Source: Eubacteriales bacterium (lineage in GTDB: Bacteria; Bacillota; Clostridia; Oscillospirales; JAAYXM01). From it: a DNA stretch of 52,027 nt. Of this stretch, positions 26,012-34,897 are shown piece by piece. The stretch covers positions 1 to 52,027 of the forward strand of contig JAZTXE010000042.1 of the NCBI GenBank assembly GCA_045636205.1. Direction: 5' to 3'. Both the position numbers and the translations under genes were made by a program. Numbering within the stretch: the stretch's first letter is position 1; every line of letters begins with the position of its first letter. The notes beneath the pieces are model-generated. The model saw only the letters and a program-made list of their open reading frames with translations, did not search any database and was not told the DNA's origin.

Positions 26012-26899
26012 TTACAAGTCTACGCCTAAGAATTTCTTTGCTGCGATACCTACAAAGAATGATACGACTGCAACGCCGAGGCTTATAAGTGCCATTTCAA
26101 GAAATCTCTTTTTAAACGGTTGGTCTTGTGCCACGGATGTGTAATATGTAAAGCCTGCAATGATTAGAATTACAACAAAAATCATGCAAATAAGCGCGGG
26201 GATGTACTGATCTGACGGGAAAATCAGATACGGCGCAATAAGCGCAATCACGGTTATAAGATACGCGATACCGGTATACGAACAGGATTTCAAAGCGTCG
26301 CTTCTTCCCTCGCTTCGAGCCGCTAAAAACTCGCTTGACGCCATGGAAAAAGTAGCGGATATTCCGACTATGAGACCTGATAGTGCAATAAGGCTTGTAT
26401 TCTGAAGAGCAAGTGCAAATCCGGCGAGGCTGCCGGTGAGTTCTACAAGCGCATCATTGAGTCCTAACACCATGCTTCCGACATAGCGCAAACTCTCTTC
26501 ATCGAGCATTCCGAGAAGTGCACTCTCATGCTCCTCCTCCTGCTGCCTTATTGTGACACTTTCGGGAATTTCATTTTTTAGTTTATCGTAAACATCCTGA
26601 GCATTTTCTTCGCCACGCTCCATAAGCTTTACCGCGAATGTAAAACCCAGCAGCCGTGCAATCATAGTATACTTAAACACTTTAAACTTCTCGGGTTTTA
26701 CATCTGCGCCCGTGTATTTCTTCCACACCTCGCAGTGTGCCTTTTCTTCCCTTGAAAGTCTTAAGAGAGTATCTTTGTTTTCTTCGCCTTTTGCAAAGCG
26801 GGATATTTTTTCGTAAATCACGCTCTCCGTCATTTCGCCCTGCTGCATTTTCTTAATAATTTTAAGCGATTCCTTTGATATATTACTTGCGCTCATCAT
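26012..26899 (-). CDS. Ferritin/rubrerythrin-like domain fused to a VIT1/CCC1 transporter (MbfA-like metal exporter)
   Basis: N-terminal E..E..H motifs (EEKAH, EEEHE); VLGLNDALVE and SMASSEFL VIT1 motifs; start at 26899 behind AGGAGGA. Confidence 0.85.
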   Translation of the reverse strand: MMSASNISKESLKIIKKMQQGEMTESVIYEKISRFAKGEENKDTLLRLSREEKAHCEVWKKYTGADVKPEKFKVFKYTMIARLLGFTFAVKLMERGEENAQDVYDKLKNEIPESVTIRQQEEEHESALLGMLDEESLRYVGSMVLGLNDALVELTGSLAGFALALQNTSLIALSGLIVGISATFSMASSEFLAARSEGRSDALKSCSYTGIAYLITVIALIAPYLIFPSDQYIPALICMIFVVILIIAGFTYYTSVAQDQPFKKRFLEMALISLGVAVVSFFVGIAAKKFLGVDL

Positions 26900-26930
26900 A
26901 TCTTCCTCCTGCGTTTTTATTCTACGCATC

Positions 26931-26959
26931 ATTATACTATCAATCACCTTATCAGTCAA
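26931..26959 (-). promoter_or_regulatory. Sigma-A promoter for the VIT1 gene, overlapping the trxB stop
   Basis: TTGACT-N17-TATAAT. Confidence 0.75.
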
Positions 26960-27875
26960 TTTCTTCCATATATTTTTCTGCAAAGTATGCAGCCGTCGCA
27001 CCGTCAGCCACTGCGGTTACTATCTGACGTATCGGCTTTGTCCGTACATCCCCCGCGGCAAAAACGCCTGCCTGTGATGTTTTAGTCGTCTCATCCGCTA
27101 TGACATATCCGTTTTTATCAATCTCCAGTTTATCGCGCACAAGCTCGGTTTTAGGGACTCTTCCTATACTTATAAAAACACCCTGCACAGTAATTTCTTT
27201 TTCCGCACCGTCAAGCGAATTTCTTACCATTACACCCCTAACCGCATCGTTTGATAAAATTTTACAGACAGTACTGTTCCATTCAAATTCCACATTCTGT
27301 GCACTCAGCAAAGGTTTAAGATATGCGCGCTCTGCCCTTAGCTTATCCCTGCGGTGTACGATAATAACCTTTTTGCAAATTTTAGAAAGCAAAAGCGCAT
27401 CTGCGGCTGCTGAGTTTCCCCCGCCTATGACAACCACGGTTTTATCTTTATAAAGCATACCGTCGCAAGCTGCACAGTATCCTACGCCTCTGCCTATTAG
27501 TGCCTGTTCGTTTTCAAGCCCAAGGTGCTTGTGCTCGGCACCGGTTGCAATAATTACACTGCGCGCTAAAAGCTCTTTATCGCCGATACTGATTCTTTTA
27601 ATTTTGTCTTTAAACTCCACGTTTGTAACCTCTGCTTGCACGGTTTTTGCACCAAAGCGTTCTGCACCCTGCTGCATTTTCATGCCAAGTGTAAATCCGT
27701 CTACACCGTTATCAAAACCAGGGTAATTATCTATTTGCGTAGTTTGAATCATTTGCCCGCCCGAGGAAAGCTTTTCGATTACAAGCGTATCAAATCCCGC
27801 TCTTGATGAATAAATCGCCGAGGTATATCCTGCAGGACCGCCACCTATTATAATTACGTCGTGTACTTTTTCCAT
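26952..27875 (-). CDS. trxB: Thioredoxin-disulfide reductase
   Basis: GGGPAG, NYPGF, YCAACDG (CxxC), GGGNSA, HRRD, FAAGDVR; start at 27875 behind AAGGAG. Confidence 0.95.
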   Translation of the reverse strand: MEKVHDVIIIGGGPAGYTSAIYSSRAGFDTLVIEKLSSGGQMIQTTQIDNYPGFDNGVDGFTLGMKMQQGAERFGAKTVQAEVTNVEFKDKIKRISIGDKELLARSVIIATGAEHKHLGLENEQALIGRGVGYCAACDGMLYKDKTVVVIGGGNSAAADALLLSKICKKVIIVHRRDKLRAERAYLKPLLSAQNVEFEWNSTVCKILSNDAVRGVMVRNSLDGAEKEITVQGVFISIGRVPKTELVRDKLEIDKNGYVIADETTKTSQAGVFAAGDVRTKPIRQIVTAVADGATAAYFAEKYMEEID

Positions 27876-27936
27876 AACGCTTCTCCTTGTCACACTTAGT
27901 CCCATGCAGTATCCCCTGCTTTAAAGACATATATGC

Positions 27937-27977
27937 AAACGAGAGGTTCCCGTAAGCTCAAGAACCTCTCGTTTTTT
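27937..27977. terminator. Hairpin terminator downstream of the acyl-CoA synthetase
   Basis: AAACGAGAGGTTC...GAACCTCTCGTTT. Confidence 0.7.
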
Positions 27978-27981
27978 GATA

Positions 27982-30282
27982 TTATTTATTCATATTTTCC
28001 ATATCATTTTTGCGGATTTCAACACGCCTTACCTTGCCGCTGATTGTTTTTGGAAGTTCATCGACAAACTCGACAATTCGCGGATACTTGTAGGGTGCAG
28101 TATGTGTTTTTACATACTCCTGAATTTCCTTTTTAAGCTCGTCTGTCCCATTCGTTCCTTTTACAAGAACAATGGTTGCCTTTACAATCTGACCGCGAAC
28201 CTCATCGGGAACCGGAGTGATTGCACATTCGAGTACATACGGAAGCTCCATGATAACGCTTTCAATCTCAAACGGTCCGATACGGTAGCCGGAGGACTTA
28301 ATAACATCGTCAATACGTCCTACATACCAGAGATAACCGTCTTCATCCATTGTTGCCTGGTCACCGGTATGATAGTATCCGTCATGCCATACTTCTTTGG
28401 TTTTCTCTTCATCAAGATAATAACCGATAAAGAGTCCGCACGGAACCTCGTCCTTTGTACGGATGCAGATTTCGCCGGCATCTCCGGTTTTGCACTCGTT
28501 ACCGTCCGGGTCTAAAACAACTACATCGTAGAGCGGGCTGGGTCTTCCCATGGAACCGATTTTAGGAGTAGAGCCTACAAAGTTTGCTATAGAGAGTGTG
28601 GTTTCGGTCTGACCAAAGCCTTCCATGATTGTAAGCCCGGTTGCTTTCTTGAACTGATTGAACACTTCGGGGTTTAATGCCTCACCCGCGGTCGTCGCAT
28701 ACTCAATAGAAGAAAGGTCATACTTTGACAAATCTTCCTTGATGAAGAAACGGTACATTGTAGGCGGTGCGCAGAATGTTGTGATATGATATTTTGCAAA
28801 CATCGGCAAAATATCTTCCGAATGGAATCTGTCAAAGTCGTATGTGAACTGCGCTGCTTCGCAGAGCCACTGTCCGTAGAGTTTACCCCAAAGAGCTTTA
28901 CCCCAACCCGTATCGGAGATTGTAAAGTGGAGACCGTCCGGATTTACATTGTGCCAATGCTTTGCGGTTGGGTAGTGACCGAGCGCATATTTATACGAGT
29001 GTGTTGCGATACGCGGATAGCCGGTTGTACCGGAAGTAAAGAGCATAAGCATCGGATCGTTACCGCAAGGTGTGTTTTCTGTGCGGTCAAAGCGCGTGCT
29101 GAAGCGCTCCATTTCAACATTGAAATCGTGCCAACCTTCTTTATTACCGCCAACCAATACTTTTATCATATCCGGGAATTCTGCAGCAGCCTTTTCAGCC
29201 TCAACAGATACATCGCCATCCGCGGTGCACACAATGGCTTTTACTTTTGCAGCTTTGTATCTGTAAGTAAAATCGTGCTCTACAAGCTGATTGGTTGCAG
29301 GGATTGCGATAGCACCTATTTTATGAAGTGCAAGCATACAGAACCAGAACTGGTAATGGCGCTTCAATACAAGCATTACTGTATCACCCTTTTTGATACC
29401 GAGTGATTCAAAATAGTTTGCAGTCTTTGCTGAATACTTTTTCATATCACTGAAGGTGAAGCGTCGGTCTGTTTTATCATTTGCAACCCACATCATAGCC
29501 AGCTTATCCGGATTCTTTTCGGCGATAGCATCAACGCAGTCATACGCAAAGTTAAACGAATCTGCATTTTTGAATTTGATGCCGCTGAATATGCCGTTTT
29601 CGTCATAAGATGATTCGATGAATTTATCAGCAACGGTTTCAGGTTTTGCTTTCTGCTCAGCAGTCTTAGCTGCGATATGCGGTGCTTCCGGGTACTCATC
29701 ACTTACCTGACCGTCATGCGGATTTAAAACAACCGCATGGAATTCGCAGCCGCCCTCACCCGCTGCAATCATGCCATGAGGGATTGTGCTGTTATAGAAA
29801 ATGGAGTCGCCCTCGTTTAAGACATCCACATGGTTTCCTACCTGGACCTTGAGAGAGCCTTTGAGGATAACATCAAATTCCTGGCCCTTGTGCGAAGCTA
29901 ACTTGATAGGCTGGTTCTGTTCTTCTTCAATATACGGAAATTTAACTAAAAAGGGTTCTGCGAGTTTCTCTCTGAATTTAGGAGCAAGGTTATTGTATTC
30001 TACCCCGTGCTTCTTTACAATCTTAAGGCCTTCGCCTTTTCTAATAATTTCAAACGATTTTAATGTTGAGCTTGTTCCTTCAAGCAAATCTACAACTTCA
30101 ACATCGCAAGCCTTTGCACATTTATAGATAAATGTGAAGCTGAAGTCTGTGTCGCCTTCTTCCAAAATCTTATAGTCCTCAACTGATACTCCCGTAAGCT
30201 TTGCAAGTTCTTCAGGTGAATAGCCTTTTGCTTCGCGCAGACCTTTGATTCTGCCCGCAACTTCCTTCAAACTGTACTCCAT
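27982..30282 (-). CDS. XRE-HTH/cupin regulator domain fused to a short/medium-chain acyl-CoA synthetase
   Basis: N-terminal RIKGLREAKGYSPEELA HTH and HKGQEF...GDSIFYNSTIPHGM cupin; FTSGTTGYP, GFGQTET, YHTGD, KSSGYRIGPFEIE, LPKTISGK adenylation motifs. Confidence 0.92.
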   Translation of the reverse strand: MEYSLKEVAGRIKGLREAKGYSPEELAKLTGVSVEDYKILEEGDTDFSFTFIYKCAKACDVEVVDLLEGTSSTLKSFEIIRKGEGLKIVKKHGVEYNNLAPKFREKLAEPFLVKFPYIEEEQNQPIKLASHKGQEFDVILKGSLKVQVGNHVDVLNEGDSIFYNSTIPHGMIAAGEGGCEFHAVVLNPHDGQVSDEYPEAPHIAAKTAEQKAKPETVADKFIESSYDENGIFSGIKFKNADSFNFAYDCVDAIAEKNPDKLAMMWVANDKTDRRFTFSDMKKYSAKTANYFESLGIKKGDTVMLVLKRHYQFWFCMLALHKIGAIAIPATNQLVEHDFTYRYKAAKVKAIVCTADGDVSVEAEKAAAEFPDMIKVLVGGNKEGWHDFNVEMERFSTRFDRTENTPCGNDPMLMLFTSGTTGYPRIATHSYKYALGHYPTAKHWHNVNPDGLHFTISDTGWGKALWGKLYGQWLCEAAQFTYDFDRFHSEDILPMFAKYHITTFCAPPTMYRFFIKEDLSKYDLSSIEYATTAGEALNPEVFNQFKKATGLTIMEGFGQTETTLSIANFVGSTPKIGSMGRPSPLYDVVVLDPDGNECKTGDAGEICIRTKDEVPCGLFIGYYLDEEKTKEVWHDGYYHTGDQATMDEDGYLWYVGRIDDVIKSSGYRIGPFEIESVIMELPYVLECAITPVPDEVRGQIVKATIVLVKGTNGTDELKKEIQEYVKTHTAPYKYPRIVEFVDELPKTISGKVRRVEIRKNDMENMNK

Positions 30283-30342
30283 TGTTTTGTCTCCTTTCAT
30301 TTTCGCCAACTAAATTAAGATTGTTACGAATTTGAATAAAAC

Positions 30343-30612
30343 AAAAAACTCGTCTCAAAAGAAACTTTTGAGACGAGTTAATAAACCCGCGGTACCACTC
30401 AAATTACGGAAGATAAATTCCGTCACTTTCCAAACTCTAACAAGTCTTTTGCCTTTACGCAGCAATACGGAAGGAGTCTACTCGGCTTTGCCTTTCGATC
30501 CTCCGACTCGGAGGTGATGGGTCATTGGAAAGTTCCGCCATTGCCTCGCACCACCCGGCAACTCTCTCAAGGCTTCACAATCCGACCGTCCTCGTCACAG
30601 TCGTTCTTTGTG
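30343..30612 (-). promoter_or_regulatory. T-box riboswitch, isoleucine specifier (AUC)
   Basis: Stem I GA motif CTGTGA..GAGG/CCTC.GAG, AGAGAG and GGTGCGA distal motifs, specifier ATC-A (30516-30518), T-box GAGTGGTACCGCG (30388-30400), terminator AACTCGTCTCAAAAG...CTTTTGAGACGAGTTTTTT. Confidence 0.9.
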
Positions 30613-30631
30613 ATATTCAAATTTGAAATAA

Positions 30632-30660
30632 ATTATACCCTGCCAAACATAATTTGTCAA
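30632..30660 (-). promoter_or_regulatory. Sigma-A promoter of the Ile T-box transcript
   Basis: Perfect TTGACA-N17-TATAAT. Confidence 0.9.
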
Positions 30661-30683: not shown

Positions 30684-33143
30684 TTATTTTTTAAGACCAA
30701 GCTTTTCAGCGGATTCATCGCGCATTTTGTACTTTAATATTTTACCCGCAGCATTCATCGGGAATTCATCTACAAAGATAAAATATCTGGGCACTTTATG
30801 CCTTGCGATTGACGCATTACCGAATTCACGCATTTCATTTTCATCAGCGGTTTCACCCTTATGAAGAATAATCCATGCGCAGCATTCCTCGCCGTATTTT
30901 TCGTCCGGAACGCCGACTACCTGGACATCGCGAACCTTCGGGTTGGTAAGATAAAACTCTTCAATTTCGCGCGGATACAGATTCTCACCGCCGCGGATAA
31001 TCATATCTTTAAGGCGACCTGTAACCTTGTAGTAGCCGTCCGGGGTTCTCATGCAGATGTCACCTGAATGGAGCCATCCGTCAGCATCAATCGCCTGAGC
31101 AGTTGCCTCGGGCATCTTATAGTAGCCTTTCATGATATTAAAGCCGCGCGCGACAAATTCACCGCTTTCGCCGTCAGGGAGTTCATCGCCGGTTTCAGGG
31201 TCGATAATTTTGCATTCAACGCCCGGGAACGCACTGCCGACAGTTTCAACACGGTGATCAAGGTCCTCATTGACTTCGCCCATAGTACATCCGGGTGATG
31301 CTTCGGTCTGACCGTAAACGGAAATAATTTCACGCATATTCATTTCAACGGCTGCACGGCGCATTAAATCCGCCGGACAGTTCGCGCCTGCCATGATGCC
31401 GGTTCTCATATATGAAAAATCGGTTTTTGCAAAATCCGGATGATTAAACATAGCAATGAACATGGTCGGAACACCGTTAAAGCACGTTATTCTCTCATTG
31501 TTGACGCAGGAAAGCGATGACTTTGGAGAAAAGTACGGAATCGGGCAAAGCGTACCACCGTGCGTCATCATAGATGTCATGGAAAGGACCATTCCGAAGC
31601 AGTGGAACATTGGTACCTGAATCATCATGCGGTCAGCTGTTGACAAGTCCATTCTGTCACCAATCGTTTTGCCGTTGTTGACAATATTGCGGTGAGTGAG
31701 CATAACACCTTTCGGGAAACCGGTCGTTCCGGATGTATACTGCATATTACATACGTCGTCGGGTTTAACCAGCGATGCACGTCTGCGAACCTCTTCGCGC
31801 GGAACAAGGGATGAACGCGAAAGCATCTCCTCCCAAGTAAGACATCCCTGCATCGAAAATCCCGCGGTTACAACGTTGCGCAAAAACGGAAGATTTTTAG
31901 AATACAGTGGTTTACCCGGCTCAAGATTTTTAAGCTCCGGGCACAACTCCTCAATTATTTCTTTATAGTTAATATCCTTGCAATACTCAATCATTATAAG
32001 AGTATGGGTATCAGACTGCTTTAACAGATATTCGATTTCATGGATCTTATATGCGGTATTGACAGTTACCAAAACCGCGCCAATTTTCGTGGTTGCCCAG
32101 AAGGTGATAAACCATTGCGGGATGTTAGTCGCCCACACAGCAACGTGGTCACCCGCTTTTACACCGAGCGATATAAGCGCGGCGGCGCATTCATCGACAT
32201 CGCGCCTGAACTGTTCATAAGTTCTCGTATAATCAAGAGTCGGGTATTTAAACGCGTACTGGTCAGGATAATTTTCTACCATTGTATCAAGAACATCAGA
32301 GAATGTTGCATCGATTACATCGTATTTTTTCCACACAAATGTGCCGGTCTTATCCCTGTTATAGTAAGCGTGTTCAAACGATTTCTTCTCACGGTTGAGT
32401 GTTGAGATATAATTTGCAAAATGGGTAAGGACTATATCCGCATCATTAATTTCTTCGTTCCATGCCGCGCATATATATCCTTCATAATTGAGCGATGAAA
32501 GTGCGCCAATAAGCTTTTCAACATCAAGCTCACCTTCGCCAATTAAAACGGTTTTTCCGTCTTTCATATCACCCAGGCGCACATACTTTATATATGCACC
32601 CAAATTTTTGATGGTTGATTCCGCGGTTTCACCTTCGCCGAAATACGTGCCTCTTACGTTCCATGATGCACCTATTGCAGAGGATGAAAAGAAATTGATT
32701 ATGTCAATTACATTTTCCGTGTTTGCAAGATAGCCGACGGTTTCAAGCAAAATATTGACATCGGCTGTTTCCGCTCGTTTTATCGCGGCAGATAGTTTCT
32801 CAGTTAACACATCAAATGAAACCTTATCTTCAATGCGTACAATTATATTGGAAATGCCGGATGCGGCAGCCATATCCACATATTTTACAATTAAATCGGC
32901 AGTTGTTTTTTCACTCTCAACAGAGTCCGGCATGCGCAAAGCCGAGACCGCAAGATTTCTGTTTAAAAGCTTTCTCTTAGCGTCGGCTACACGGTCACGC
33001 CTCAATATACTATCGTGATGAAAGCTTCGCTCCTTTATGGCATCATATATTTCAAAGCCTTCAAATCCGTAATCAAAGGCATAACGGCAGGTATCAAGAA
33101 ATGAAGCACGGCTTACATTCTTGGTTGAAAATACTATTTTCAT
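30684..33143 (-). CDS. Degenerate xylose-isomerase-like TIM barrel fused to an AMP-dependent acyl-CoA synthetase
   Basis: N-terminal ~250 aa with AP_endonuc_2-like pattern; YTSGTTGFPKG, YGQTE, WLHSGD, RLKDMIIRGGEN, NAAGKILK; ATG at 33143, one base after the upstream stop. Confidence 0.9.
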   Translation of the reverse strand: MKIVFSTKNVSRASFLDTCRYAFDYGFEGFEIYDAIKERSFHHDSILRRDRVADAKRKLLNRNLAVSALRMPDSVESEKTTADLIVKYVDMAAASGISNIIVRIEDKVSFDVLTEKLSAAIKRAETADVNILLETVGYLANTENVIDIINFFSSSAIGASWNVRGTYFGEGETAESTIKNLGAYIKYVRLGDMKDGKTVLIGEGELDVEKLIGALSSLNYEGYICAAWNEEINDADIVLTHFANYISTLNREKKSFEHAYYNRDKTGTFVWKKYDVIDATFSDVLDTMVENYPDQYAFKYPTLDYTRTYEQFRRDVDECAAALISLGVKAGDHVAVWATNIPQWFITFWATTKIGAVLVTVNTAYKIHEIEYLLKQSDTHTLIMIEYCKDINYKEIIEELCPELKNLEPGKPLYSKNLPFLRNVVTAGFSMQGCLTWEEMLSRSSLVPREEVRRRASLVKPDDVCNMQYTSGTTGFPKGVMLTHRNIVNNGKTIGDRMDLSTADRMMIQVPMFHCFGMVLSMTSMMTHGGTLCPIPYFSPKSSLSCVNNERITCFNGVPTMFIAMFNHPDFAKTDFSYMRTGIMAGANCPADLMRRAAVEMNMREIISVYGQTEASPGCTMGEVNEDLDHRVETVGSAFPGVECKIIDPETGDELPDGESGEFVARGFNIMKGYYKMPEATAQAIDADGWLHSGDICMRTPDGYYKVTGRLKDMIIRGGENLYPREIEEFYLTNPKVRDVQVVGVPDEKYGEECCAWIILHKGETADENEMREFGNASIARHKVPRYFIFVDEFPMNAAGKILKYKMRDESAEKLGLKK

Positions 33144-33144
33144 A

Positions 33145-34533
33145 TTATGCCTCCTCAAATACGATTTTGTTAAGTGCGTTAATATATGCTCTTATGCTTG
33201 CTGCAACAATATCGGTGGATGTCCCGTTGCCGGAATAGAGCTTTCCGTTATTGCGAAGACGTACAAGAGCTGAGCCTAACGCTTCCTTTCCCTCAGTTAC
33301 AGATTGAACCTGAAAATCATCAAGCTCATAATGATGACCTATGCACTGTTCTATAGCGCGGAATGCAGCATCAATAGGACCGTCTCCGTTGCTTACGCCG
33401 CACATAATTTCGTCATTGCACTTTAACGTAACCTGCGACATGGAGTTTGTGACATTGCTGCTGGTTGTTGTATAGGTCTCAAAATGGTATGTTGAAGGTG
33501 CCTGCATTGCTGAGCTTGCGATAAGTGCTTCAAATTCCTTTGCGCCGACTGCGCCCTTCTTTTCACACACCTGCATGAGTGCTTTATATACATTTCCTAT
33601 ATCCGAATCAGAGAGCTCGTATCCTAAAACTTCTGCTGCCTGAGTAATCTGAGACATTGAAGAGTCCGAATCGAGTAAAATCTTTTTCTTTTCACTTATT
33701 GTTTTTTCGGATTCGTAGCTTTCGTGATTGATGTTTGAGAGCATATCGTCAATACTTGAATGTATTTTTGTAGTATCCAGTTTAATTTCTGCATCTATTC
33801 TGGCTCCGCAAACTGTTATGGCATCGCAGATTTCTCCGGCTAAAAGAACATCCTCGCCCGCCATAGCACATTTCAAGCCATCTGCACCTTTTGAAATTGA
33901 AGCAAAGGCAGATGCAACGCCCATGTTTATACGGTCAGAAACCTGAACGTATACAGGAACGCTTACAACGCCTTTAATCTTTGCAACAAGCTCTGCAATT
34001 TCATCCGGAGTTGATGCTCCTGCATTGTCGCATATGGTAATGATGCCCGCTCCGCTTTCTTCGGCTTCTTTTGCGGCAGCTATAAGGAACTCTGCATCCG
34101 CTCTTGTCGCATCAAGTGCAGAAAACTCAACGTCATCACAATACATCTTTGCTTCTTTTACAAGCTCTGCAATTTTCTCAAGCATCGCGGTCTGTTTGAT
34201 GTGGTACATATACTCCATCTGGAGCGTTGATACGGGAAGCTCAATCTGAAGGCGCGGGTTCTTTGCATCCTTAACGCATTCCCATACAGATGCGACATCT
34301 TCTTTGTTAAATCCGACCGGAATAGCAAGGGCTGCATTCTGAGCATTCTGCGCAATAGTTTTATATATAATCGTATCCTCACGAAGGTTTTTAACAGCAG
34401 GCAGCTCGACAGTATCTGCGCCGAGTACATCTGCACAATTTGCTATCGCTGACTTTTCACGGAAGAGCAGTGAAATTCCACGGTCCTCTGAAAGTTTTTT
34501 AAGTGTAATATCTGCAATGTTTATTTTTCTCAT
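33145..34533 (-). CDS. LeuA (2-isopropylmalate synthase) paralog with a degenerate catalytic domain and an intact regulatory domain
   Basis: VEFSALDATR barrel remnant; GDGPIDAAFRAI and TDIVAASIRAYINALN regulatory domain; RDGEQ and HxH motifs missing; start at 34533 behind AAGGAG. Confidence 0.85.
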   Translation of the reverse strand: MRKINIADITLKKLSEDRGISLLFREKSAIANCADVLGADTVELPAVKNLREDTIIYKTIAQNAQNAALAIPVGFNKEDVASVWECVKDAKNPRLQIELPVSTLQMEYMYHIKQTAMLEKIAELVKEAKMYCDDVEFSALDATRADAEFLIAAAKEAEESGAGIITICDNAGASTPDEIAELVAKIKGVVSVPVYVQVSDRINMGVASAFASISKGADGLKCAMAGEDVLLAGEICDAITVCGARIDAEIKLDTTKIHSSIDDMLSNINHESYESEKTISEKKKILLDSDSSMSQITQAAEVLGYELSDSDIGNVYKALMQVCEKKGAVGAKEFEALIASSAMQAPSTYHFETYTTTSSNVTNSMSQVTLKCNDEIMCGVSNGDGPIDAAFRAIEQCIGHHYELDDFQVQSVTEGKEALGSALVRLRNNGKLYSGNGTSTDIVAASIRAYINALNKIVFEEA

Positions 34534-34584: not shown

Positions 34585-34857
34585 CAAAAAAACGCTCCCG
34601 TCTCTCTGCTGATTTAAAGAGACGAAAACGTTAAAACTCTTTGTTTCCGCGGTACCACTCTTCTTCATCCGATAAAGGATGCCCTTTAGATGCCAACACA
34701 TCCGAACTCTGTCACGGGAGTTCCCGTCTGCCACTACTGCAACTTTCATGGCAACCGCTCCGCGGTGAGTTCAGCAAAACTCTCCCGATACCTCGCACCG
34801 ACCGGTATCTCTCTTAAGGTGAAAGTTTTACATACTATTCCGCATCACAGCGTTTGA
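34585..34857 (-). promoter_or_regulatory. T-box riboswitch, leucine specifier (CUC)
   Basis: GCTGTGATGCGG/CCGCGGAGC stem I base, AGAGAG and GGTGCGA, specifier GAA-CTC-A (34767-34769), stem II AGTAG and IIA/B CCCGT, T-box AAGAGTGGTACCGCG (34648-34662), terminator with U-tract. Confidence 0.93.
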
Positions 34858-34868
34858 ATTTGGAATAA

Positions 34869-34897
34869 ATTATAGCACCTATTTTTAAACTTGTCAA
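34869..34897 (-). promoter_or_regulatory. Sigma-A promoter of the Leu T-box transcript
   Basis: TTGACA-N17-TATAAT with extended TG. Confidence 0.9.

Follow-up and report, generated by a model that had tools for sequence, protein, structure and literature searches.

What role is left for a protein built like LeuA once its catalytic apparatus has gone, and what is its gene doing between a predicted leucine-responsive leader and an acyl-CoA synthetase gene? The question is raised by a gene on the minus strand (34533..33145; 462 codons plus TAA) of the window, that is, the whole 52,027-nucleotide stretch of DNA analysed here (contig JAZTXE010000042.1 of a Eubacteriales bacterium). The original prediction had described an intact 462-codon frame with lost LeuA catalytic motifs and a preserved C-terminal allosteric domain, with the ribosome-binding site (RBS) of the following ligase gene inside the 3' end of the frame, and had taken the product to be a leucine-sensing subunit of that ligase rather than an isopropylmalate synthase (IPMS). 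The frame is intact as described, and a longer ATG-initiated open reading frame extending up to 34749 was rejected as the gene because it enters the T-box leader. The coupling to the ligase gene is visible in the sequence as well: the LeuA-like gene ends in ttt gag gag gca TAA t ATG, so that its final codons contain the ligase RBS, GAGGAGG (33150..33156, minus strand), with TAA-T-ATG leading from the stop codon of the one gene to the start codon of the other.

To assess the catalytic apparatus, we aligned the LeuA-like protein to the LeuA of two relatives, G033 (752.9 bits) and G004 (707.6 bits), both above the TIGR00973 cut-off and 29-31% identical to the window protein, and to the solved IPMS structures 3ewb and 3rmj. 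In this alignment DTTLRDGEQ has become DITLKKLSE, EFSAEDATR has become EFSALDATR and PDTVGY has become CDNAGA; the metal-ligand HxH is gone (VHCHND to VQVSDR), and the His of the ATSxIH motif is replaced by Gln. A 5-residue deletion falls at the GERAGN site, and a deletion of ~33 residues takes out AHExGIHQHG...YEIMxPESIG, i.e., accessory subdomain I with HxSGIHQ. The alignment therefore agrees with each of the losses originally listed (DTTLRDGEQ, FSAED, PDTVG, HCHND, GERAGN and the HESGIHQ core). The DRE-TIM triad (Arg and Asp of DTTLRDGEQ, Glu of FSxED) reads Lys, Lys, Leu in the window protein and Cys, Ser, Ile in a 43%-identical orthologue, and these positions vary across the LeuA-like family. 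The losses are not accidental, being kept in the rows sampled from 105 full-length family representatives at 27-50% identity (every fourth row was inspected, plus all six wider-LeuA comparison rows; column statistics were taken over 106 sequences). For the M. tuberculosis enzyme, a table in a review (PMC10464499) lists R80A, R80K and E218A as active-site variants, with effects that include "destroyed enzymatic activity" but are not assignable to individual variants; the window protein has Lys and Leu at the positions of R80 and E218.

Curated models point the same way. Among the NCBIfam LeuA equivalogs NF002086 scores best, yet its 250.1 bits fall short of the cut-off of 532; TIGR00973 reaches 220.9 bits where 598.7 are required, and all 26 matched NCBIfam models, including every LeuA, citramalate and homocitrate model, remain below cut-off. 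Since all the residues that define the DRE-TIM Claisen condensing site are replaced or deleted, the scores fall below every curated cut-off and no leuB, leuC or ilvD partner genes were found in the genome (see below), the sequence evidence supports well the view, also held in the original prediction, that the protein is not an isopropylmalate synthase. The accompanying expectation that annotation pipelines would miscall the gene as leuA did not hold for NCBI, where near-identical proteins are named "hypothetical protein" or [quoted passage not shown].

Of 2-isopropylmalate synthase, the protein has retained the barrel fold and the allosteric C-terminal domain, and has lost the entire catalytic apparatus. 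The protein consists of a degenerate HMGL-like TIM barrel (residues 4-226; 33856..34524, minus strand; PF00682, 96.6 bits, and Foldseek on 3rmj/3ewb), a shortened linker that carries the two deletions and replaces the barrel end and accessory subdomains (33544..33855, minus strand), and a LeuA allosteric/dimerisation domain (residues 331-457; 33163..33543, minus strand), which matches PF08502 (LeuA_dimer) at 111.3 bits over positions 4-130 of 131. The AlphaFold2 model has a mean pLDDT of 92.6, falling below 50 at residues 271-282. Foldseek superposes its barrel on the catalytic domains of IPMS (3rmj and 3ewb; rmsd 1.7-1.8 A), and the model aligns over ~540 columns to full-length M. tuberculosis LeuA, including the leucine-bound 3fig, while the top match is 6e1j, a methylthioalkylmalate synthase.

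The C-terminal domain is the most conserved part of the protein, with a mean consensus fraction of 0.69 in the family (106 sequences) vs. 0.48 (barrel) and 0.38 (linker). It shares the motifs GDGPIDAAF, SVTEGKEALG and GNGTSTDIVAASIRAYINALNK with both true LeuA, and the residues that are invariant in the LeuA-like family (G383, G385, G437, D441, A453 and N455) are matched in both curated true LeuA and in most of the six wider-LeuA rows (6/6 for D441, A453 and N455; 4/6 for G437). The preservation of this domain claimed at the outset is thus evident from the Pfam match, the motifs and the conservation. Against a same-genus orthologue (dS 0.52), dN/dS was 0.060 for the whole gene, 0.076 for the barrel, 0.045 for the linker and 0.036 for the regulatory domain; the comparison was restricted to this orthologue because synonymous sites are saturated in more distant ones, which makes their dN/dS unusable. 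The per-domain check that the original prediction had called for therefore revealed strong purifying selection on the gene, which is not a decaying pseudogene.

Which ligand the regulatory domain would bind is less certain, as the same kind of domain binds isoleucine in citramalate synthase (PMC9860122). A single-sequence search of the domain against solved structures gave a chance lumazine-synthase match and nothing else; with a family profile, the Leptospira regulatory domain 3f6g was matched at E 1.5e-4 over 49 positions, and 1sr9/3fig were reached through the barrel alone. A literature search for M. tuberculosis residue names returned nothing relevant. We therefore make no claim about individual pocket residues, there being no useful alignment to a solved leucine- or isoleucine-bound domain.

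Leucine would enter the regulation of the gene at the RNA level. A T-box leader (34615..34857, minus strand) scores 131.5 bits against RF00230 (gathering score 93) and spans the full model, 1-219. In the Infernal alignment its specifier columns read CUC followed by A, i.e., a leucine codon plus a purine. The 3' end of the T-box match runs into a terminator-like hairpin (34591..34632, minus strand; a 17-pair stem and then a T-run), which is where a terminator/antiterminator switch would be expected. Upstream lies a sigma-70-type promoter, TTGACA-17-TATAAT with a TG extension (34869..34897, minus strand; 12/12 hexamer matches); because shuffled sequence gives about as many promoter-like sites, the case for this promoter is its position and perfection, not the count. 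With its own promoter and transcription passing through a leucine-specific T-box, the LeuA-like gene would be made only when tRNA-Leu is uncharged. A T-box above the gathering score lies directly upstream of the LeuA-like gene in 13 of the 14 orthologous loci examined, and in 14 leaders including that of the window, read by eye, the specifier is CUC in 13 and CUG in one. Leucine-specific T-box leaders (RF00230) are known upstream of leuS and of ilv-leu operons in Firmicutes. The present leader resembles them in its full length, CUC specifier and terminator-like hairpin, but differs in controlling genes among which there is no recognised gene of leucine biosynthesis, charging or transport.

The gene to which the LeuA-like gene appears translationally coupled (30684..33143, minus strand) encodes a fusion of a TIM barrel to an AMP-forming acyl-CoA synthetase, 819 aa long when read from a conserved ATG (the N-terminus, MK..., is common to 15/15 aligned orthologues). 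Pfam assigns AP_endonuc_2 to residues 20-230 and AMP-binding to residues 288-675 (319.6 bits), together with AMP-binding_C (58.3 bits), and the best NCBIfam match is PRK12583 (680.5 bits). The ligase part carries intact core motifs of ANL-superfamily acyl-CoA synthetases, namely SGTTGFPKG, YGQTE and a C-terminal AAGK lysine. Across 14 loci, identity is 70-95% for the ligase part, 41-82% for the LeuA-like protein and 33-86% for the fused barrel. Weakly aligned to MJ1311 (E 0.024), the barrel has E, N, R and A at its four canonical metal positions in the window; in three distant orthologues the positions so placed read E-D-H-E, E-E-H-V and E-D-H-I. We thus rejected an intact enzyme in the barrel of the window's ligase; judged by its sequence, this xylose-isomerase-like barrel is likely degenerate.

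Complex prediction with the fusion's barrel domain alone and the LeuA-like protein gave a score of 0.40 (runs 0.40, 0.11 and 0.40; best of three controls 0.00; at least 23% of contacts shared among runs; partner pLDDT of at least 81), which is graded "weak support". The mark applied is reached by 58/80 solved complexes and 2/110 mismatched pairs, and scores of 0.60 or less at that mark include 7 of the 80 solved complexes and both mismatches, i.e., by its calibration the tool is wrong more often than right at this score unless the pairing is likely a priori. No protein fusing the LeuA-like part to the ligase was found among proteins of 810-2310 residues, which is weak evidence.

The genomic association of the two genes is strict in one direction. 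The LeuA-like gene is present in 26 of 41 related genomes and is followed by the barrel-ligase fusion, within ~17 bases, in all 26; a LeuA-like gene without the fusion was not found among the 41. Conversely, the fusion occurs without a LeuA-like gene as a full-length gene in four genomes (G033, G026, G027 and G013), each time with its own T-box (CUC in three), and as a contig-end fragment in a fifth (G007), and five of the 41 have the ligase with neither barrel nor LeuA-like gene. Because the fusion stands under a leucine T-box without a LeuA-like gene in at least four genomes, the LeuA-like partner is dispensable for the core function of the fusion. More than 120 protein clusters share the length of the LeuA-like protein, with ~105 full-length family representatives. 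At the class level, full-length matches of at least 463 bits occur in 78 of the 399 genomes sampled, and only one of these has an in-frame stop, so that the decay among homologues that the original prediction had named as a refutation is not seen.

The surroundings of the gene in relatives suggest what the ligase might do. In three distant genomes (G037, G039 and G028), the first units consist of an Ile T-box and an HTH-cupin-ligase gene, the second of a Val T-box followed by genes for an HTH-cupin-ligase, an oxidoreductase and an aminotransferase, and the last of the LeuA-like gene, the barrel-ligase gene and Amidohydro_2, with a Leu T-box before the LeuA-like gene in G037 and G039 and none in G028. 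That is, the ligases of the Ile and Val units have an HTH-cupin module of their own fused to them. The neighbour of the LeuA-like operon in the window is likewise an Ile-T-box unit, and the top NCBIfam model for its ligase is MbcS, at 454 bits where the cut-off is 850.

In the window's genome (G000, 94% complete), nothing scored over the cut-offs for leuA, leuB and leuC, and ilvD had no match at all; the true leuA that was to be looked for elsewhere is thus not found over cut-off, and another source of leucine is needed. The genome does have a four-subunit 2-oxoacid:ferredoxin oxidoreductase (a CbiA-like/delta/alpha/beta/gamma cluster) and a class-IV (branched-chain) aminotransferase, both 49-84% identical to the genes beside the operon in the three distant genomes. 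Strict mutual exclusion with the leucine pathway was rejected: none of the six genomes with a LeuA over cut-off carries the LeuA-like gene, but in two genomes (G014 and G016) the module coexists with a leuB over cut-off and with an adjacent long LeuA-like gene, and hence the module is not simply a replacement for a lost pathway. At the class level, two further genomes (G143 and G426) combine a high LeuA-type match with a lower one.

Rumen and gut anaerobes need isovalerate, 2-methylbutyrate and isobutyrate to make leucine, isoleucine and valine, and the reductive carboxylation of these acids to the three amino acids has been known in rumen anaerobes since the 1960s. The gene set found here is the one that this route calls for (ligase, 2-oxoacid:ferredoxin oxidoreductase and aminotransferase), with each ligase behind the matching T-box; there the physiology is known, whereas here the function is read from gene context. 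Purified S. aureus MbcS activates 2-methylbutyrate and isobutyrate and uses isovalerate poorly (PMC10026030), which fits a separate type of ligase for the leucine arm.

Taken together, we give about an even chance to the reading that the LeuA-derived pseudoenzyme and its ligase are induced by leucine starvation and serve to turn isovalerate back into leucine, the dead LeuA being the ligase's leucine-sensing partner. The pair would be the arm for leucine in a system that salvages branched-chain amino acids, in which the ligase would convert isovalerate, the substrate suggested by the gene context, to isovaleryl-CoA, the four-subunit oxidoreductase would carry out the reductive carboxylation of isovaleryl-CoA to 2-oxoisocaproate, and the class-IV aminotransferase would yield leucine. 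Within this scheme, free leucine would most likely be bound by the retained regulatory domain of the dead LeuA, and the dead barrel and linker would then restrain the ATP-consuming ligase, which would add a fast end-product feedback to the slower T-box control. The most economical view of the protein is that it would regulate the ligase encoded next to it as a leucine-sensing subunit, and this view is strengthened by the leucine T-box, the 26/26 adjacency to the ligase, the regulatory domain being the most conserved part and the HTH-cupin of the Ile and Val ligases. More tentatively, and with a somewhat poorer than even chance in our view, the allosteric apparatus of the old first committed enzyme may have been passed in trans to the new one as these Clostridia turned to isovalerate for their leucine: a LeuA dimer would dock on the fused barrel and close the ligase at high leucine, the Ile and Val ligases would use their fused HTH-cupin instead, and the whole would be a three-armed pathway under T-box plus allosteric control.

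Alternatively, the dead LeuA could be a structural or assembly partner that oligomerises, stabilises or scaffolds the ligase without sensing leucine (e.g., so that isovaleryl-CoA is handed on to the oxidoreductase), with leucine control left to the T-box alone. Pfam does name PF08502 an "allosteric (dimerisation) domain", IPMS is a domain-swapped dimer whose chains are held by these domains (PMC9860122), purifying selection also acts on the barrel, and some genomes make do with the fusion alone. However, the regulatory domain is conserved much more strongly than the rest of the protein and keeps the LeuA-wide glycine-rich motifs, which goes beyond a dimer surface, and the cupin of the Ile and Val sister ligases, being of a small-molecule-binding type, points to a sensor for each arm; we therefore regard a scaffold without sensing as unlikely. 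Somewhat more unlikely still, in our judgement, is that, at times of leucine shortage, isovaleryl-CoA from the operon primes the synthesis of iso-odd branched-chain fatty acids, for which leucine is the usual primer source, and does not serve leucine synthesis, with the LeuA-like protein still an accessory or sensor. S. aureus MbcS plays this part for 2-methylbutyrate and isobutyrate (PMC10026030), the neighbouring Ile-T-box ligase is MbcS-like, and a leucine T-box would equally report a shortage of leucine-derived primer. The three distant genomes, however, interleave the ligases with the oxidoreductase and the branched-chain aminotransferase behind a Val T-box, that is, with an amino-acid-making set, the window's genome needs a leucine source in any case, and the two outcomes are not mutually exclusive.

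The remodelled barrel might instead have acquired a new, metal-independent activity or carry a ligand such as 2-oxoisocaproate or an acyl-CoA. Its low dN/dS and its nearly invariant polar residues (D8, T10, E107, Y108, K113, D141, R144 and D169) would agree with this, but most of these residues are common to true LeuA as structural motifs (DxT, MEY, DATR, xD..G), the positions that bind metal, 2-oxoacid and acetyl-CoA vary freely among family members and the site has lost its capping accessory subdomain to a deletion, so we deem such neofunctionalisation very improbable. As for a leuA left to decay after loss of the leucine pathway, the failure to find the genes of that pathway in the window's genome is what such decay would predict, but 462 intact codons, a dN/dS of 0.06, an own T-box and promoter, and a family of this many same-length clusters and full-length representatives with one in-frame stop among 78 genomes leave this explanation a negligible chance, and we rejected it.

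In the open literature we found no paper on the LeuA-like gene or on an IPMS pseudoenzyme (older T-box regulon surveys were outside the scope of the search), none that ties a T-box specifier or regulon to acyl-CoA genes (the remaining hits were unrelated or feeding-trial papers), and none in which the activation of the acids is linked to particular genes or to their regulation. If the three-armed reading is true, this would be the first identification of genes for a pathway under T-box plus allosteric control that turns fermentation acids into branched-chain amino acids; for each of the three arms, this locus and those related to it supply candidates that can be tested, and they show how T-boxes wire the arms to amino-acid status. 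The LeuA-like protein would also illustrate neatly how a biosynthetic enzyme can become a sensor, with a regulatory domain that could be used or studied apart from catalysis. For annotation, the gene should not be counted as leuA when leucine prototrophy is predicted, which concerns about one-fifth of the sampled genomes of the class (78/399).

Several known systems help to place these findings. S. aureus MbcS is likewise an AMP-forming ligase that activates exogenous branched short-chain acids, but it feeds fatty-acid synthesis, is poor with isovalerate (PMC10026030) and has no T-box, fused sensor or LeuA-like partner; the ligase coupled to the LeuA-like gene is of another, PRK12583-like type. 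With the short bacterial form of LeuA (TIGR00973/PRK00915; 3ewb and 3rmj; full-length 1sr9/3fig), the protein shares the domain order of TIM barrel, linker and LeuA_dimer, but it is without the triad, HxH, GERAGN and the His-bearing accessory subdomain, is ~40-50 residues shorter and scores below the curated cut-offs, and its gene is linked to an acyl-CoA ligase, not to leuBCD. The closest parallel in logic may be HisZ, a dead histidyl-tRNA-synthetase paralogue that acts as the histidine-sensing regulatory subunit of the short ATP phosphoribosyltransferase, for which binding and feedback have been shown experimentally. The logic proposed is the same: a dead paralogue of an enzyme that recognises an amino acid takes on a new use, sensing that end product for the first committed enzyme of its supply route. 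Fold and partner differ, and leucine binding and feedback are proposals here. Finally, methylthioalkylmalate synthase (6e1j), a descendant of IPMS without the regulatory domain, is, like the LeuA-like protein, an IPMS paralogue with a changed role; it kept catalysis and lost the regulatory domain, and the LeuA-like protein is its mirror image.

The LeuA-like gene occupies 34533..33145 on the minus strand (462 codons plus TAA), which agrees with the coordinates of the original prediction; a longer ATG-initiated frame, up to 34749, was rejected because it overlaps the RNA leader. Its product consists of an HMGL-like barrel (residues 4-226; Pfam, 96.6 bits) and a LeuA allosteric/dimerisation domain that covers nearly the whole Pfam model (residues 331-457; 111.3 bits). 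It scores 250.1 bits against the best NCBIfam LeuA equivalog, for which the cut-off is 532, and none of the NCBIfam models for LeuA, citramalate or homocitrate synthase reaches its cut-off. The AlphaFold2 model has a mean pLDDT of 92.6, with only residues 271-282 disordered; in Foldseek searches its barrel superposes on IPMS barrels at 1.7-1.8 Å and the whole chain aligns to M. tuberculosis LeuA, with leucine-bound 3fig among the matches.

To compare motifs, we aligned the window protein and an orthologue 43% identical to it with two reference LeuA sequences, from genomes G033 (752.9 bits) and G004 (707.6 bits), both over the TIGR00973 cut-off. The losses described in the original prediction were all recovered: DTTLRDGEQ has become DITLKKLSE, EFSAEDATR EFSALDATR, PDTVGY CDNAGA and the metal-binding VHCHND VQVSDR, a 5-residue gap stands in place of GERAGN, and the HESGIHQ core falls within a gap of about 33 residues covering AHExGIHQHG...YEIMxPESIG. 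In addition, ATSxIH of true LeuA reads VSTLQ, and the same changes are seen in HMMER alignments to the solved IPMS structures 3ewb and 3rmj. At M. tuberculosis positions R80 and E218 the window protein has Lys and Leu; a published table includes R80A, R80K and E218A of MtIPMS as active-site variants and "destroyed enzymatic activity" among the effects, although the assignment of effects to variants is ambiguous in that table (PMC10464499). The C-terminal motifs GDGPIDAAF, SVTEGKEALG, GNGTSTDI and AYINALNK, on the other hand, are those of true LeuA, as had been claimed. Since the protein lacks every catalytic feature that defines membership, it does not belong under the name LeuA; judged by its sequence, it is a LeuA homologue without the catalytic features of LeuA. 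Loss of catalysis may have occurred more than once, judging from two LeuA-type representatives outside the family, P0258 and P0265 (503 and 511 aa), whose sites are also damaged (DSTLCEGE with VHSQND; DTTLCDGE with IRAYND and GKRAGC).

The catalytically dead LeuA is a family, not an accident. A word-indexed search returned at least 120 clusters at 82-94% identity, those listed having 462 residues in 118 cases, 461 in one and 479 in another, all from Clostridia MAGs and named "hypothetical protein" or [quoted passage not shown] at source. When 50%-identity representatives were searched exhaustively, 279 proteins reached E <= 1e-30; of the best 150, 105 span the full length (445-500 residues), with identities of 27-50%. 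Sampled evenly, the class showed a full-length family match of at least 463 bits in 78 of 399 scored genomes, and a separate group of about 500 residues at 247-423 bits looks like true LeuA. Two family matches (G406:C36:532-1929 and G292:C131:2345-3535) have one in-frame stop each (TGA and TAG, respectively), which may reflect either damage to the gene or an error in sequencing. Among the family rows read, every fourth of the 105, there is no constraint to be seen at the positions of the former active site. Across 106 sequences the regulatory domain has a mean consensus fraction of 0.69, against 0.48 in the barrel and 0.38 in the linker, and most of the invariant residues fall within it (F24, K113, G383, G385, G437, D441, A453 and N455 in all). 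The per-domain dN/dS comparison proposed originally gave 0.076, 0.045 and 0.036 for barrel, linker and regulatory domain, based on the same-genus orthologue only, more distant pairs being saturated.

Expression of the gene appears tied to leucine by its leader. A perfect TTGACA-17-TATAAT promoter (34897-34869, minus) is followed by a full-length T-box (34857-34615, minus; 131.5 bits) with specifier columns CUC then A, a leucine codon, and by a terminator with a 17-pair stem. An over-threshold T-box precedes the gene in 13 of 14 orthologous loci; counting the window, 13 of the 14 leaders have CUC as specifier and one has CUG, likewise a leucine codon, and at the remaining locus the gene comes immediately after one for a class-IV aminotransferase. 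This is the only Leu-specific T-box among the eight of the window's genome (94% complete, 121 contigs), and the T-box search detected none at leuS. Other T-boxes there, for Phe (UUC), Tyr (UAC) and Trp (UGG) on contigs C31, C36 and C108, precede a DAHP-synthase-like gene, a gene for a 518-aa membrane protein that we take by eye for a sodium:solute-type transporter, and a trpB-like gene, respectively. A search for a true leuA elsewhere in this genome, as the original prediction suggested, found none over cut-off, nor did leuB or leuC have such a match, and ilvD had no match at all. In the related genomes G014 and G016, the module coexists with a leuB over its cut-off and with a long LeuA-like gene adjacent to it.

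The partner gene (30684-33143, minus) encodes a protein of 819 residues in which a xylose-isomerase-like barrel is fused to a complete acyl-CoA synthetase of the AMP-forming type (best NCBIfam match PRK12583, 680.5 bits) and is translationally coupled, with GAGGAGG within the last codons of the LeuA-like gene and a TAA-T-ATG junction, both directly readable as predicted. The LeuA-like gene occurs in 26 of 41 related genomes, always with the fusion within about 17 bases downstream; no case of it without the fusion was seen in the 41. Identity across loci is 70-95% for the ligase body, 41-82% for the LeuA-like protein and 33-86% for the fused barrel. The fusion without the LeuA-like gene is full-length in four genomes (G033, G026, G027 and G013), each time behind a T-box of its own (CUC in three, an ambiguous specifier in the fourth), and is a contig-end fragment in G007; a stand-alone ligase (51-53% identity) occurs in five. 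That is, the occurrence is nested, from ligase alone to barrel-ligase to barrel-ligase plus LeuA-like gene. In G025 and G029 the stand-alone ligase is flanked by an MFS transporter gene and a gene of the metallo-beta-lactamase fold. In G034 (L043, 4965-7589) the barrel is encoded by a gene of its own (AP_endonuc_2, 273 aa, 92.8 bits) behind a stand-alone ligase 53% identical to the window's, a split fusion in opposite order and without a T-box. The metal site of the fused barrel (32334-33143, minus) seems to be lost in the window's clade: in the alignment of fusion orthologues its four metal positions, which were located by weak similarity to MJ1311, are E, N, R, A in the window, and E-D-H-E, E-E-H-V and E-D-H-I in three distant orthologues.

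Directly downstream lies a sister unit (27982-30660, minus) with its own perfect TTGACA-17-TATAAT promoter (30660-30632), a T-box with an AUC (Ile) specifier (30607-30366) that at 91.9 bits narrowly misses the gathering score of 93, a terminator at 30379-30347, and an HTH_3, Cupin_2 and AMP-binding fusion of 775 aa, all on the minus strand; the best NCBIfam model of this ligase is MbcS, at 454 bits (cut-off 850). The unit probably forms the arm from 2-methylbutyrate to isoleucine. In three distant carriers, G037, G039 and G028 (loci L048, L049 and L050), an Ile unit (Ile T-box, AUC; HTH-cupin-ligase), a Val unit (Val T-box, GUA; HTH-cupin-ligase, CbiA-like gene, oxidoreductase delta/alpha/beta/gamma, class-IV aminotransferase) and a Leu unit (LeuA-like gene, barrel-ligase, Amidohydro_2 gene) form a supercluster. 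In G037 and G039 the LeuA-like gene has a Leu T-box (CUC) in front of it; in G028 it has none and comes straight after the aminotransferase gene. The Amidohydro_2 family contains reversible decarboxylases. In the window's genome, a 2-oxoacid:ferredoxin oxidoreductase cluster (CbiA-like/delta/alpha/beta/gamma) and a single class-IV aminotransferase are 49-84% identical to these operon neighbours. That genome also has a second HTH-cupin-ligase paralogue (contig C10, about 26716-28921; 47-50% identical to the G037 Ile/Val ligases), in front of which the T-box search detected none.

Reductive carboxylation of branched-chain acids is long known from rumen physiology, and a set of three ligases, one under each branched-chain amino acid's T-box, beside genes for an oxidoreductase and an aminotransferase would supply what that route requires. 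The leucine ligase would act on isovalerate, and a separate ligase type for leucine fits the report that S. aureus MbcS, assayed as purified enzyme, accepts 2-methylbutyrate and isobutyrate but is poor on isovalerate (PMC10026030). A role of the operon in supplying fatty-acid primers appears improbable.

The most economical mechanism, and one we give about even chances, is that originally proposed: the dead LeuA would be a leucine-sensing regulatory subunit of the neighbouring ligase, its retained regulatory domain binding leucine and the protein restraining what would be the new first committed, ATP-spending step. We favor this reading based on how conservation is distributed along the protein, its strict and translationally coupled pairing with the fusion, the nested phyletic pattern, and the parallel with the small-molecule-binding cupin fused to the Ile and Val ligases. 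Against it, the fusion functions without a LeuA-like partner in some genomes, no protein fusing the LeuA-like and ligase parts was found (weak evidence), and the homologous regulatory domain binds isoleucine in citramalate synthase (PMC9860122). Alternatively, the protein might be a scaffold without sensing, which we consider unlikely, or its barrel might have acquired a new activity, which is more doubtful still; decay of a leuA pseudogene has next to no probability given a whole-gene dN/dS of 0.060 at dS 0.52 for the same-genus pair.

A complex prediction for the LeuA-like protein with the fusion's barrel domain, a pair within 1000 residues, scored 0.40 (runs 0.40, 0.11 and 0.40; best of three controls 0.00), with contact agreement of at least 23% and partner pLDDT of at least 81. 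Of 80 solved complexes 58 reach the mark, as do 2 of 110 mismatched pairs; at 0.60 or below, the numbers are just 7 of the 80 and both mismatches. The result counts as weak support for the contact and shifts the odds only a little.

Within the accessible literature, that is, outside subscription journals and supplements, we found no paper pairing isopropylmalate synthase with a pseudoenzyme or linking T-box regulons to an acyl-CoA ligase. Methylthioalkylmalate synthase is both the top structural match (Foldseek) of the LeuA-like protein and its mirror image. HisZ, the histidine sensor of ATP phosphoribosyltransferase and itself a catalytically dead paralogue of a tRNA synthetase, offers a model for how the dead LeuA would work. 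The elements combined here are each of a known kind: a proposed sensor derived from a dead enzyme, control by a T-box, and a physiological route already described.
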